From the IMG/VR virus record IMGVR_UViG_3300005329_000001: a stretch of DNA of 64,000 nt, one strand, 5' to 3'. Of this stretch, positions 3,116 through 9,057 are shown piece after piece (position 1 is the first letter of the stretch; each line of letters opens with the position of its first letter). The notes below the pieces were generated by a model that saw nothing but the letters and a program-made list of their open reading frames with translations, searched no databases and was not told the origin of the DNA. The translations under genes and the position numbers were made by a program. Source of the DNA: a virus. Taxonomy: Duplodnaviria; Heunggongvirae; Uroviricota; Caudoviricetes.

Positions 3116-3718
3116 TCAGTACCTCTCCCCTGTATGGTGGTCGACCGGCTTCCAGATCTTCTTGTTCATGTGCTCACGGACTTGCTCGAAGGAGACTGGC
3201 TTGAAGTCCCAGTTGTCGACCCCGACGTCCATGCTGCGGGCATGAGGGTCATCCGGTAGGTTGCCGTGAGAATGGCCGTAGAGCTGCCACGATCCGTGGT
3301 GCGACTTGTTCCAGACGCGCATGGCGTAGTGGCAGAGGACGATGTGTTGAGTCCTCTGAGGTGCGGCCGGATCGGGTGCGATCTTGACTTCGGCAAAGTC
3401 GGACGTCCACTCGAAGTGCCTCATGACACGGCCGTCTTTGCGGATTCTCTTGTCGTGGTTGCCGAAGATGAGGATCTTGCGCCCGGAGAGATCGCAGAGA
3501 TGTTTCTCCACCTTCTCCGGCGTGCTGCTGCAGGAGATGTCGCCGAGTATGTAGATGACGTCATCCGGCTTGACTACAGCATTCCAGTTATCGATGAGCG
3601 TCTTGTTCATCAGATCAACGTCTGGCTCTCCAGCGGCGTTCTTGAACGGCCGATTGGCGTAGACGATGATCTTCTCGTGGTCGAGATGTAGATCTGAAGT
3701 GAACCAATAGTTAGGCAT
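3116..3718 (-). CDS. Calcineurin-like metallophosphoesterase (MPP superfamily)
   Basis: Motifs DLHLDH, GDISC, GNHD and GHSHG are present in the canonical order. The stop and start overlap the neighbouring genes. Confidence 0.8.
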   Translation of the reverse strand: MPNYWFTSDLHLDHEKIIVYANRPFKNAAGEPDVDLMNKTLIDNWNAVVKPDDVIYILGDISCSSTPEKVEKHLCDLSGRKILIFGNHDKRIRKDGRVMRHFEWTSDFAEVKIAPDPAAPQRTQHIVLCHYAMRVWNKSHHGSWQLYGHSHGNLPDDPHARSMDVGVDNWDFKPVSFEQVREHMNKKIWKPVDHHTGERY

Positions 3719-4250
3719 TGTTCTGTTCTTTCACCATCCTGTCGTAGAGGACCATGTACACGGCGGCCGACAGGTTCACGCAGTGCTTGGTCGGAATAAA
3801 AACGAAGCGGTGGCAACGAGAGAGAATCCCTTTGTCGAGAGAGCCGTCTTCCGGGCCGAAGACGTACACCGCCTTCTTGGGGTGAACGAAGTCTGGCAAC
3901 TTCTCGCTGTTGGGTCTGAACTCGAGCGCTACCGGAGTAACGTCACTAGGAAAGGCGTCAAGCGCACGAGTAGAGCGTAAAAGGCGGACGTCTGAGTAGC
4001 CTCGCATCCTCTCCTCACGAGGAATGCGATCGAGACCTTCGAGTTGTTTTGCGACACGGTCACCGCTCCACCACACCTGATTGACGTTGAAGCAGGCGCA
4101 CGCTCGGATCACTTGACCGAGGTTGTGCGGGTACTTCGGATTGTGCAGATAGACCGCAGGAGTCTCCCCTTGGATTCTTACCTCCTTGCCTTTGGCGTCG
4201 TGTGCGAGAAATGCGTCAGGACTGAGTCCATGCTCATCGACGTTGTACAT
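3711..4250 (-). CDS. SpoU/TrmH-family (SPOUT) RNA 2'-O-methyltransferase
   Basis: Motifs NLGQVIRACACFNV and VFGPEDGSLDKGIL...IPT...NLSAAVYMVLY. Size is about 180 aa. RBS AGGAG. Confidence 0.75.
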   Translation of the reverse strand: MYNVDEHGLSPDAFLAHDAKGKEVRIQGETPAVYLHNPKYPHNLGQVIRACACFNVNQVWWSGDRVAKQLEGLDRIPREERMRGYSDVRLLRSTRALDAFPSDVTPVALEFRPNSEKLPDFVHPKKAVYVFGPEDGSLDKGILSRCHRFVFIPTKHCVNLSAAVYMVLYDRMVKEQNNA

Positions 4251-4302
4251 CCTGACTCCTAATAGGAAATTGAGGACTTGGACTTATACCGAGAACTTCT
4301 CT

Positions 4303-4343
4303 TTTTTAGCTAAGAAAAGCCGGCACCCGTGAGGGCACCGGCC
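4303..4343 (-). terminator. Rho-independent terminator for the MVP-like gene (minus strand)
   Basis: On the minus strand the sequence reads GCCGGTGCCC-TCAC-GGGTGCCGGC (10-bp stem with two G-U pairs) followed by TTTTCTTAGCTAAAAAAG. It lies directly 3' of the stop at 4351. Confidence 0.5.
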
Positions 4344-4350
4344 TTCCGTA

Positions 4351-7146: not shown

Positions 7147-7149
7147 GGC

Positions 7150-7587
7150 TCAGATCTCCTTTGACTGCTGCGTGGTACTGCGGGGAAACGTATCGATGAC
7201 GCCGTCGAGAATCAGGCTGGGCTTCTCGAAGCGCTCGATGACACTCGGCATCAGTGCGGACAGTCCGGGCCCGCCGAACATGTCATTCGAGTGAGAAGGC
7301 TTGCCCTTCTTCTCTCTGTCGACGGACAGAGTGATGTGGGGGAACCAGTTGTCGGACATGACGCCGTGAACCAAGACGGCATCCACTCTCTGGTCCCAGC
7401 CGTAGCCAATGACCTTCAATTTCACCTTCTGACCGATTGCAAGGTTCTCGACCTCGAACCGAGAAGGCATGAACTTGATGGTCATGTGGTCGGCGTGAAT
7501 CTCCTTGTGCTTGGGAGGATACGTGGAGAGCAGGAGCTCTCTCGACTCTGGAGTCAAGAAGACCCCAATATATGTAGTGTCCGGCAT
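7150..7587 (-). CDS. 2H-superfamily phosphoesterase (LigT / 2',3'-cyclic phosphodiesterase-like)
   Basis: Two H-x-T-x motifs, DHMTIKF and PHITLSV, with the spacing typical of 2H enzymes. 145 aa. The stop abuts the MVP start. Confidence 0.5.
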   Translation of the reverse strand: MPDTTYIGVFLTPESRELLLSTYPPKHKEIHADHMTIKFMPSRFEVENLAIGQKVKLKVIGYGWDQRVDAVLVHGVMSDNWFPHITLSVDREKKGKPSHSNDMFGGPGLSALMPSVIERFEKPSLILDGVIDTFPRSTTQQSKEI

Positions 7588-7623
7588 CTTTCCTTATCTC
7601 TACGAAGGCCGTAGAATTTCGGC
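7588..7623. promoter_or_regulatory. Divergent promoter region containing a CGTAGAAT (-10-like) element 11 nt upstream of the 7624 start
   Basis: The sequence CGAAGGCCGTAGAATTTCGGC lies between the minus-strand gene start (7587) and the plus-strand gene start (7624). The same CGTAGAAT plus CGAAGGCC combination recurs at about 31035-31055. Confidence 0.3.
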
Positions 7624-9057
7624 ATGTCTGAGTTCGCTCCTGGGATCCCGGCGAAGCACGTTTCACACGATCTTCCGCACGTCGAGGAGCGAAAGACGTG
7701 GGAATTGACTGTTCACGACCATCACGCTGAGAGACGCGGCCGCCACTTCGACCTTCGACTCGGAGATCCAGCTACCGGACACGCCCATTCGTGGGCGATG
7801 CACGCTCAGTGGCCGAAGCCGGGCGAGAAGACCTGGGCCATCCAGCAGCCGACACACACGATGAAGTACATGGACTTCGTCGGGAAGATCGAGGATGGCT
7901 ACGGCAAGGGCGACGTGAAGATGTTCGATCGAGCTAAGACAGAAATCACCAATGCTCGGCCCGGACACGTCAGCTTCAACGTCTACCGAGGCAGCGGGCC
8001 GGAAGAGTACTCCCTCCATCGGGTCGGAGACAAGCAGTGGATTCTGATGAATCGCACGCTGCGGCGGGAGCAGCATCCAGAGCTCCCAACCGACAAGCCC
8101 AAGTACAAGGAAACCAAGCTCTCTGACCCGAAGATCCACACCGACGACTACGTCTTCTCAGCCAAGATCGACGACGCTCACAACCTCTTCTACTTTCCCA
8201 AGGCGGGTGAGAAGATCCGGGTACTTTCGTACCGCGCCGCGAAGAGAAGCAACGGAGGACTGATTGAACACACGCACAAGGTCCCCGGAATCCTGGAGGG
8301 AGTACCTACGCCGGAAGGACTCGGAGGAACGATCCTTCGAGGAGGCTTGTACGCGATTTCACCAAGAAGTGGAATCGCTACGCCGGCAGCCCAACTCGCC
8401 GGCCTTCTCAACTCCGATGTCTGGAAGAGTCGTCAGAAGCAAGAAGAACACGGACAACTCAACTCCGTCCTCTACGACGTCGTCCAGTACAAAGGCCGCA
8501 AGATGGAGAGCGCTCCTTACTCGGAGAAGCTGAAAGTTCTTCGAGAGGTAGAGGCGAAATTGCCGGACTACTTCCACCTGCCTCGCATGGCCTTCACCGA
8601 GACGGCTAAGAAAAAAATGGTGGAAGACATGAAGGAAGGGAAGATGCCGGAGACGAAGGAGGGCATCGTCGCCTGGCATCTTCACCAAGGAACACCACCG
8701 TACAAGGCAAAGTTCTCGACGGACCACGATGTCTACATTCGCGGCTTCTTCCCTGGCGAGGGCAAGTACAAGGACCGTGGGGTGGGAGGCTTCTTCTACT
8801 CCTACGAGCCTGATGGGCCGATCGTTGGCCGCGTCGGAACAGGGCTCAGTGATGCTCAGCGCTCTCACATGCACTCGAGCCCAGAGGTCTACATGGGAAC
8901 AGTGGCGCGCGTGAAGGCGCAGGAGCGGTTCCCGTCTGGAGCTCTGAGAGCTCCCGCCTTCGACGCGTGGCACCTAGATAAAAACGATCCAGAGGCGCTC
9001 GCGTTGGTGAAGCACGCGTCTCTGGATCATGAGCTAGTCTTCTTGTGGGACGTCTAG
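7624..9057 (+). CDS. LigD-type 3'-phosphoesterase (PE) domain fused to an ATP-dependent polynucleotide ligase (nucleotidyltransferase plus OB fold)
   Basis: The N-terminus TVHDHHAERRGRHFDLRLGD matches the LigD-PE HxDxRLE core. Ligase motif I is AKIDDAH (a KxDG variant). Motif III is LYDVVQY, motif IV EGIVAW and motif V YKAKF. This is the only plus-strand gene in the left arm, and its 3' end overlaps the next gene by 4 nt. Confidence 0.75.
   Translation: MSEFAPGIPAKHVSHDLPHVEERKTWELTVHDHHAERRGRHFDLRLGDPATGHAHSWAMHAQWPKPGEKTWAIQQPTHTMKYMDFVGKIEDGYGKGDVKMFDRAKTEITNARPGHVSFNVYRGSGPEEYSLHRVGDKQWILMNRTLRREQHPELPTDKPKYKETKLSDPKIHTDDYVFSAKIDDAHNLFYFPKAGEKIRVLSYRAAKRSNGGLIEHTHKVPGILEGVPTPEGLGGTILRGGLYAISPRSGIATPAAQLAGLLNSDVWKSRQKQEEHGQLNSVLYDVVQYKGRKMESAPYSEKLKVLREVEAKLPDYFHLPRMAFTETAKKKMVEDMKEGKMPETKEGIVAWHLHQGTPPYKAKFSTDHDVYIRGFFPGEGKYKDRGVGGFFYSYEPDGPIVGRVGTGLSDAQRSHMHSSPEVYMGTVARVKAQERFPSGALRAPAFDAWHLDKNDPEALALVKHASLDHELVFLWDV

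Follow-up and report, generated by a model that had tools for sequence, protein, structure and literature searches.

A phage-specific LigD-like phosphoesterase-ligase and a 2H-vault protein gene pair in a variable accessory island of a large tailed phage

The DNA considered here (the window) is a 64-kb stretch of the tailed-virus record IMGVR_UViG_3300005329_000001, and the genes in question lie between its positions 3,116 and 9,057 (the interval). Close homologs of window genes are found on metagenomic contigs of ~200-217 kb and on IMG/VR viral contigs, which identifies the source as a large, uncultivated tailed phage; the genomes of its relatives measure roughly 200 kb. An earlier reading of the sequence, referred to below as the original prediction, described four genes in the interval, encoding a calcineurin-like metallophosphoesterase (MPP), a SpoU-family methyltransferase, a 2H phosphoesterase and a LigD-type 3'-phosphoesterase (PE) fused to an ATP-dependent ligase, and proposed that together they form a module for RNA repair. 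All four open reading frames (ORFs) are present with exactly the boundaries that had been given (Table 1), and all four assignments of enzyme domains are borne out. The interval really contains five genes, however, since a major vault protein (MVP) homolog that takes up 47% of it had been overlooked. These genes belong to three units: a SpoU-MPP-ThyX operon, a 2H-MVP cassette and a solitary PE-ligase gene.

Table 1. Features of the interval, followed by other features of the window (approximate positions are marked ~).
Feature	Position	Strand	Remarks
PE-ligase gene, 477 residues	7624-9057	+	LigD_N 43.8 bits (Pfam cutoff 31.1); OB_2 and A_M weak
LigD-type 3'-phosphoesterase (PE) domain	7693-8058	+	~residues 24-145
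ATP-dependent DNA-ligase catalytic core	8116-8988	+	nucleotidyltransferase ~residues 165-365, OB domain ~366-455
CNPase/tRNA-ligase-CPD-like 2H phosphoesterase, 145 residues	7150-7587	-	His34-Met-Thr36 and His84-Ile-Thr86; first gene of 2H-MVP cassette
MVP homolog, 931 residues	4351-7146	-	starts 3 nucleotides after 2H stop; MVP_shoulder 83.6 bits (cutoff 25)
Terminator-like hairpin and U-tract	4314-4347	-	directly 3' of MVP stop; -27.3 kcal/mol, z -4.95, 0/200 shuffles as stable
2H-MVP-terminator cassette, ~3.3 kb	~4319-7600	-	inserted relative to L031
SpoU/TrmH-family (SPOUT) 2'-O-methyltransferase, 179 residues	3711-4250	-	stop overlaps MPP start by 8 nucleotides
Calcineurin-like metallophosphoesterase (MPP), 200 residues	3116-3718	-	phrog_547 'phosphoesterase' 5.8e-54; directly upstream of ThyX
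ThyX thymidylate synthase	2158-3114	-	Thy1 2.6e-36; operon partner of MPP and SpoU, conserved border of variable island
Cys-rich protein, 361 residues	1052-2137	-	N-terminal RanBP2-type zinc finger; adjoins ThyX also in L031 and L038
PurA (adenylosuccinate synthetase)	9054-10421	-	1.6e-60; stop overlaps PE-ligase stop by 4 nucleotides, tail-to-tail
DnaJ domain fused to protein-kinase-like domain	11652-12725	-	phrog_3043; also conserved in L031
Endolysin-like protein	13211-13939	-	PG_binding_1 and weak VanY match
Papain-family C1 peptidase	14330-15130	-	near endolysin-like protein; pair stays close in L031, L032 and L038
tmRNA	17974-18334	-	ARAGORN; Rfam RF00023 125 bits
Second ATP-dependent DNA ligase, 497 residues	28042-29535	-	motif I KRDG; PF01068 2.4e-8; phrog_114

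The PE-ligase is encoded by the lone plus-strand gene of the neighbourhood, which diverges from the 2H gene across 36 bp and converges on purA. When a profile of its family is compared with the PDB, the PE part finds as its best matches the stand-alone archaeal enzymes CkoPE (3p4h, 3.4e-19) and MbaPE (3p43, 2.3e-16) and the PE domain of Pseudomonas LigD (3n9b, 3.6e-11). Six residues, H33, H41, D43, R45, H78 and Y82, are invariant in an alignment of 32 family members and align with His42, His48, Asp50, Arg52, His84 and Tyr88 of Pseudomonas LigD, the essential residues whose roles have been described (PMC8656161). The domain thus retains its complete catalytic set, the loss of which, jointly with a firm grouping of the ligase among replicative DNA ligases, had been named as grounds for abandoning the RNA-repair proposal. 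In the polypeptide the PE precedes the ATP-dependent ligase, which is the order found in Pseudomonas LigD (PE-ligase-polymerase). Unlike LigD, the phage protein consists of PE and ligase domains alone, the primase-polymerase domain being absent, and no match to Ku was found among the ~50 window ORFs scanned. Although this fusion had been singled out as not known outside bacterial NHEJ LigD, a PE joined to a ligase is a normal partial LigD architecture and no novel fusion; what is new is a polymerase-less family specific to phages. The best NCBIfam matches of the PE-ligase are LigD models, all far below their equivalog cutoffs, and by its score for the equivalog TIGR02777 (44 bits against a cutoff of 144) the PE domain is not orthologous to that of bacterial LigD.

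In the ligase domain, motif I reads K181-I-D-D-A-H (nucleotides 8164-8181), and K181, D183, D285, E346-G347, K361 and K363 (motifs I, III, IV and V) are invariant in the family. The atypical KIDD sequence at residues 181-184, to which the original prediction had drawn attention, is real. Position 184 is Asp or Gly across the family, giving a consensus of K-I-D-[D/G]-A-H as against KxDGxR in LigD, and because it is Gly in part of the family, KIDD is a tolerated variant of KxDG. An AlphaFold model of the protein (pLDDT 90.2) was compared with known structures using Foldseek, and all of the top 50 matches (50/50, with E values down to 5.5e-13) are ATP-dependent DNA ligases, including archaeal ligases, human Lig1/3/4, T4 DNA ligase, the ligase domain of Mycobacterium LigD, LigE and a Rhizobium phage ligase. 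The C-terminal part of the family profile likewise matches DNA ligases exclusively when searched against all PDB sequences. RNA ligases (Rnl1-Rnl5, RtcB) occur neither among the PDB profile matches with E<=1 nor in the Foldseek top 50. Profile and fold therefore place the enzyme with the ATP-dependent DNA ligases and not, as the repair module would have had it, with RNA ligases; this grouping is one half of the joint condition that the original prediction had itself listed as adverse.

The core shares its nucleotidyltransferase-OB fold with the ligase domain of LigD. It also resembles the minimal ligases (Chlorella virus, LigE, T7-type and the Rhizobium phage enzyme 9fzx), which have the same two-domain core of ~300 residues with PF14743 (OB_2, 7.5e-6 in the PE-ligase); 9fzx, 1fvi, 6gdr and 4d05 are all among its profile or fold matches. 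These enzymes differ in having no PE domain, and the identity is 14-20%. The second ligase of the window, also correctly anticipated, shows no significant pairwise similarity to the PE-ligase and is not a close paralog of it.

Homologs of the PE-ligase number 444, many of them on contigs of ~200-217 kb. A scan of IMG/VR with the single protein gave no match, and an alignment-based query was needed to detect the 28 loci found there. Amongst 185,579 species genomes, the family motifs occur at one locus, L120 (DAOQAF010000001.1, 204,271 bp), which was binned as a Bacteroidales metagenome-assembled genome (MAG) and is probably a mis-binned phage genome. As the lone match in species genomes is itself a probable phage, the family is a derivative, specific to phages, of the PE-ligase architecture of LigD and, in contrast to LigD, essentially phage-only. 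No deposited phage genome matched the whole interval by megablast, or the PE-ligase by tblastn. Some family members further differ from LigD in carrying additional domains. P0113 has a C-terminal inorganic pyrophosphatase domain (1e-27), a fusion that fits an active adenylylating enzyme, others carry unannotated C-terminal extensions, and two have an N-terminal 2H domain, to which we return below.

The 2H protein gave only its self-match in a word-indexed homolog search, and a full HMMER scan was needed to recover its 904 relatives. Among 40 homologs, both H-x-T motifs are invariant or almost so. Against the Pfam tRNA_lig_CPD model, for which the cutoff is 23, the protein of the window reaches 16.6 bits, but its homologs P0137 (27.9) and P0126 (26.7) exceed this value; its sequence has no real match in the PDB. 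Since the motifs are kept among its relatives, the assignment as a 2H phosphoesterase with two HxTx motifs, whose failure had been the other stated ground for refuting the proposal, holds, and the fold is of the CNPase/Trl1-CPD (tRNA-ligase cyclic phosphodiesterase) kind. CNPase-type enzymes, such as CNPase itself and the CPD of Trl1, leave a 2'-phosphate and a 3'-OH.

Downstream of the 2H gene, the MVP homolog is full-length: rat and human MVP match its shoulder domain and the repeat and cap-helix regions next to it, and the match to eukaryotic MVP in the PDB (3e-16) is collinear between residues 529-785 of the query and 453-713 of MVP. More than 2400 MVP homologs were found; such genes occur on 244 IMG/VR viral contigs and also in Myxococcota MAGs. 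Phage MVPs had been known earlier from two gut phages (bioRxiv 10.1101/2023.11.10.566534); the present counts show that they are common in large phages. The protein of the window differs from the eukaryotic and earlier phage MVPs in its apparent co-transcription with a 2H phosphoesterase. In a separate observation, a WGR domain, of the kind that occurs in PARPs, is joined to the MVP homolog P0308. PARP-like proteins are encoded next to rIIB in relatives of the phage, and a Ro60/TROVE-type vWA protein in one of them (L031 497-1927; L038 21200-22330; L001 19272-20897). The set of MVP, PARP-like and Ro60/TROVE-type proteins echoes the proteins of the eukaryotic vault (MVP, PARP4, TEP1/TROVE).

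The close spacing of the 2H and MVP genes, together with the hairpin directly after the MVP stop codon, suggests that the pair forms a transcription unit of its own; the terminator and a ribosome-binding region account for the 100-nucleotide spacer between SpoU and MVP. Comparison with L031, whose PE-ligase is 83% identical, is informative with regard to how this unit came to lie where it does. Both 2H and MVP are absent from L031, SpoU is directly beside the PE-ligase gene, and the spacer between the latter two aligns to positions 4231-~4318 and ~7600-7643 of the window, so that the indel comprises precisely the terminator, MVP and 2H. The 2H-MVP pair recurs in L038 and in L033, where it is 15.7 kb from the PE-ligase gene on the same contig. 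Indel and recurrence together show that the pair is a small mobile cassette, which owes its adjacency to the PE-ligase in the window to its site of insertion. A general pairing of 2H with MVP was considered and rejected, as a 2H gene is nearby in only 1/80 IMG/VR MVP loci; nor was any conserved neighbour of MVP found among these 80 loci. The pairing is specific to the clade of phages represented by the window, L038 and L033.

The third unit runs on the minus strand from SpoU through MPP to ThyX. The overlap of the first two genes and the abutment of MPP on ThyX suggest a single operon. MPP was said to be of the phosphatase type found in Clostridium Pnkp. It is indeed a calcineurin-like phosphoesterase, with DxH, GD, GNHD and GHxH motifs that can be read from the sequence, but it has no GDxVDRG signature and is of the aq_1665/phrog_547 type, so that the likeness to Pnkp holds at the level of the superfamily only. 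Its sole relative in the PDB is Aquifex aq_1665 (1xm7, 6e-6), it matches nothing in Pfam or NCBIfam, and no link to the lambda-phosphatase/Pnkp branch emerged from the PDB, PHROG, Pfam and NCBIfam matches. The adjacency of MPP and ThyX is kept in three genomes (the window, L031 and L038), which suggests a role for MPP in nucleotide metabolism. SpoU, similarly, is a member of the family proposed (PF00588, 62.1 bits against a cutoff of 29.7), with weak matches to the TrmL/TrmJ/RlmB subfamilies. The further suggestion that it might mark repaired junctions as Hen1 does is not supported, as the SPOUT fold is unrelated to Hen1 and nothing connects SpoU with the marking of junctions. An ortholog of SpoU is present in L031 only (9368-9889), at 91% identity when the flanking genes are 65-83% identical, which suggests either recent acquisition or strong constraint; the protein has no PHROG family and is absent from the other relatives.

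It is attractive to assume that enzymes of complementary chemistry encoded side by side act together, and the related loci allow this assumption to be assessed. In 30 loci with PE-ligase homologs of 35-66% identity, the 10 kb on either side of the PE-ligase gene contain no homolog of MPP, SpoU, MVP or 2H, and clustering of all flanking ORFs revealed no conserved neighbour. The genes that recur beside it are unrelated ones, for beta/beta' of the phage RNA polymerase, tail sheath, a sigma factor and dCMP deaminase, and its surroundings elsewhere mostly concern the metabolism of DNA and nucleotides (ThyX, dCTP and dCMP deaminases, NUDIX, Dam, endonuclease VII, GIY-YIG). In the window and three closer relatives a variable island sits between the endolysin genes and a ThyX-zinc finger-rIIA block. 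The order in the window is endolysin, a 143-residue protein, DnaJ/kinase, phrog_2971, PurA, PE-ligase, 2H, MVP, SpoU, MPP, ThyX, the zinc-finger protein and rIIA. L031 has this order without 2H-MVP and with an additional Fic gene. In L038, whose MVP is 70% identical, the order is endolysin, the 143-residue protein, 2H, MVP, an 88-residue protein, MPP, ThyX, the zinc-finger protein, an RNA ligase (PF09414) and rIIA, and there is no PE-ligase, SpoU or PurA at the island site. The island of L032, whose PE-ligase is 66% identical, places the PE-ligase gene between the endolysin gene and a Dam methylase gene, with ThyX further on. Divided among three transcription units, with an indel of the cassette and without synteny across 30 loci, the four genes do not make up one module that is inherited or transcribed together. 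Because their clustering is not conserved in relatives, their adjacency alone does not exceed what is expected of a shuffled accessory island.

Taken together, these results lead us to a preferred reading, which we hold with about even confidence: the interval is part of a hypervariable mosaic accessory island with three independent units, and its conserved core is a phage-specific, polymerase-less LigD-like PE-ligase that heals and seals 3' ends. The PE domain, which would be Mn-dependent, is envisaged to act where duplex nucleic acid is nicked or broken, removing a 3'-phosphate or trimming 3'-ribonucleotides. The nucleotidyltransferase-OB domain would then be adenylylated at Lys181 and seal the healed 3'-OH to a 5'-phosphate. 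The likeliest substrate would be phage DNA with 3'-blocked or ribonucleotide-ended nicks. Separately, the 2H enzyme, co-transcribed with the vault-protein homolog, would open 2',3'-cyclic phosphates to 2'-phosphate and 3'-OH, and the third operon would join an RNA 2'-O-methyltransferase with genes of nucleotide metabolism.

Several observations weigh against this reading. The residue equivalent to Glu82 of Pseudomonas LigD is Pro76, invariant in the family, and that equivalent to Gln40 is His31, nearly invariant. In LigD one of the two PE activities is tuned by these two residues, and given the invariant Pro the activity spectrum of the phage PE may differ from that of the LigD PE. The LigD PE trims 3'-ribonucleotide tracts as well as 3'-phosphates, and LigD-type ligases favour a 3'-ribonucleotide at the nick (PMC8656161), which makes a substrate with a ribonucleotide 3' end chemically reasonable and RNA or RNA-DNA substrates conceivable. 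Moreover, in P0052 and P0071 the PE-ligase is fused to an N-terminal LigT-type 2H domain that retains both HxT motifs, which points to 2',3'-cyclic phosphate ends, and hence to RNA chemistry, and not to ordinary DNA nicks. The assignment of these fused domains to the same family as the window 2H was rejected, since the likeness is confined to the HxT motifs, and the two are of different subfamilies.

The company kept by homologs of the window 2H is a further difficulty. These are found fused to HAD_SAK_1 phosphatases and to a poly(A)-polymerase-type nucleotidyltransferase. One such case is a 322-residue protein of a 205-kb phage contig (L034 9455-10423), which joins HAD_SAK_1 (2.8e-20) to a 2H domain of the window type, and another homolog lies inside a 1582-residue protein with MJ1316, AKAP7-2H, AAA_33 kinase and R3H domains. 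Similar assemblies are the Swiss-army-knife RNA-repair proteins reportedly described by Burroughs and Aravind in a paper cited in PMC7824862, after which Pfam HAD_SAK_1 is named, and the architectures in which the 2H homologs occur are of this RNA-repair type. L038 also encodes, at 15870-16736 between the zinc-finger gene and rIIA, the PF09414 RNA ligase mentioned above (motif EKIHG); the window has no gene in this slot. As the RNA ligase accompanies 2H-MVP at a site that lacks the PE-ligase, one ligase may have displaced the other. Finally, a co-occurrence search across the clade found two loci for the second ligase (n=2), both on contigs outside the list of those with a PE-ligase.

Some of these points lend weight to the proposal that the genes cooperate in RNA (tRNA) repair as a defence against anticodon nucleases or RNA-targeting toxins of the host, a proposal which we nevertheless consider unlikely. 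In such a pathway the 2H enzyme would open a 2',3'-cyclic phosphate, the PE and/or MPP would strip the phosphate, the ligase would seal the break, SpoU would protect the RNA by 2'-O-methylation, and some other part of the genome would encode a 5' kinase. The neighbourhood does recall T4 Pnkp/Rnl1, bacterial Pnkp/Hen1 and the Trl1 of fungi and plants (ligase-kinase-CPD), in that a CPD-type 2H, candidate phosphomonoesterases (PE, MPP), a 2'-O-methyltransferase and a ligase occur together. The CNPase/Trl1-CPD-like character of the 2H protein, the Swiss-army-knife settings of its family (HAD_SAK_1, MJ1316, AAA_33 kinase, poly(A)-polymerase head domain), the joining of a LigT-type 2H to the PE-ligase and the RNA ligase of the L038 island all speak for it. 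So do the AAA_33 kinase-like gene of L001, which is 9 kb from the PE-ligase gene and accompanied by a vWA_Ro60 gene, the tmRNA confirmed in the window, and a survey of jumbo phages in which 2H and calcineurin-like enzymes are counted among the phage RNA-repair parts (PMC7824862).

On the other hand, the components that such a pathway requires are of the wrong kind or were not found. The ligase adopts the fold of DNA ligases, OB domain included, and is not of the Rnl, Trl1 or RtcB type. No 5' kinase is visible in the 64-kb window, as had been remarked at the outset: the ORFs scanned gave no AAA_33 or PNK match, the called genes contain no Walker A motif, and there is no homolog of the kinase-like protein of L001. 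Nor is there an RNA ligase amongst the window ORFs scanned, the window being 64 kb of a genome estimated at 200 kb or more. MPP keeps company with ThyX and is not of the Pnkp type, and the methyltransferase, being a SPOUT enzyme, is unrelated to Hen1. In contrast to Pnkp/Hen1, the genes are not in one operon and not co-inherited; the four have no conserved synteny, and the 2H gene came to adjoin the PE-ligase gene through cassette insertion. Even the LigT-type 2H domains fused to the PE-ligase are of a different subfamily from the window 2H. On balance, the original observation is right for the most part though incomplete, and its interpretation finds partial support, from the enzyme assignments, the 2H family in RNA-repair proteins, the fusions and the RNA ligase of L038, but not as regards the module, the ligase or a kinase.

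A narrower form of RNA repair deserves separate mention. From the P0052 and P0071 fusions it would follow that a PE-ligase can be partnered by a cyclic phosphodiesterase, and because such fusions exist in relatives, a hand-off of ends from the former to the latter is plausible; for the same reason an RNA-repair role confined to 2H and the PE-ligase is a live minority possibility. Extended to the whole clade of large phages, this would mean that a PE-ligase fed by 2H seals 2',3'-cyclic-phosphate breaks, in RNA or in ribonucleotide-ended DNA, without Rnl or RtcB, by a pathway not recognised before, with the vault homolog as a possible scaffold or compartment. We regard this extension as improbable.

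It might also be supposed that the PE-ligase serves in end joining or circularisation of the phage genome in a manner akin to non-homologous end joining (NHEJ), possibly with host Ku and with the PE cleaning the ends first, much as mycobacteriophages exploit host LigD. The protein has the domains of LigD without the polymerase, LigD ligase domains (1vs0, 6nhx) are among the fold matches, and a wide clade retains the gene as a singleton. However, this explanation would have to accommodate the missing polymerase domain, the lack of a Ku match in the window ORFs scanned and the sub-cutoff NCBIfam LigD scores noted above, and minimal nucleotidyltransferase-OB ligases of the LigE/Chlorella virus type usually favour nicks over double-strand ends; we think it very unlikely. 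Equally doubtful is the notion that 2H is an anti-signalling phosphodiesterase, Acb1-like or of the viral 2'-5'-oligoadenylate type, which destroys cyclic-nucleotide immune messengers of the host while the PE-ligase is one of two housekeeping DNA ligases, for although the protein is small and stand-alone like Acb1 and is carried on a mobile cassette in an accessory island, as is typical of anti-defence genes, the domains fused to its homologs (HAD_SAK_1, kinase, MJ1316) are those of RNA repair and not of anti-signalling contexts, and several of the homologs score above the tRNA_lig_CPD cutoff.

With the mosaic-island reading preferred, the novelty of the locus lies in the phage PE-ligase family with its fusions and in the clade-specific pairing of 2H with MVP, and not in a demonstrated new repair system. 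End-healing ligases of the LigD type have been studied as enzymes of bacterial NHEJ, whereas here they are polymerase-less and widely conserved in phages of ~200 kb; neither LigD nor vault proteins are mentioned in the comparative survey of jumbo phages (PMC7824862). The fusions with LigT-type 2H and pyrophosphatase domains offer a direct hypothesis that links cyclic-phosphate end chemistry to an enzyme with the DNA-ligase fold, and if one polypeptide were indeed to heal and seal 3'-phosphate or 2',3'-cyclic-phosphate ends, it could be a useful reagent. The pairing of MVP with a CNPase-like enzyme provides a tractable prokaryotic entry to the function of vault proteins. The locus also carries a more general caution, namely that plausible partners adjacent to one another in a phage accessory island are weak evidence for a pathway.

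The remainder of the window is in keeping with its phage origin. Its G+C content is ~60%, its structural genes include those for a baseplate-J protein and a giant tail-fibre-like ORF, and endolysin, tmRNA, ThyX, PurA and rIIA-like protein genes were also called. A sigma-70 promoter scan gave no match, which is uninformative as the phage has a sigma-like factor of its own, and an Rfam scan of the window, including the vicinity of the MVP gene, recovered the tmRNA alone. The giant ORF (43848-50660, plus strand) encodes 2270 residues rich in Gly, Thr, Ala and Ser, is atypical in its G+C content by codon position (0.57/0.67/0.63) and is probably a fibre protein. The tmRNA encodes an unusually long tag, ANDNVRVQSNLSAPLQAAA.

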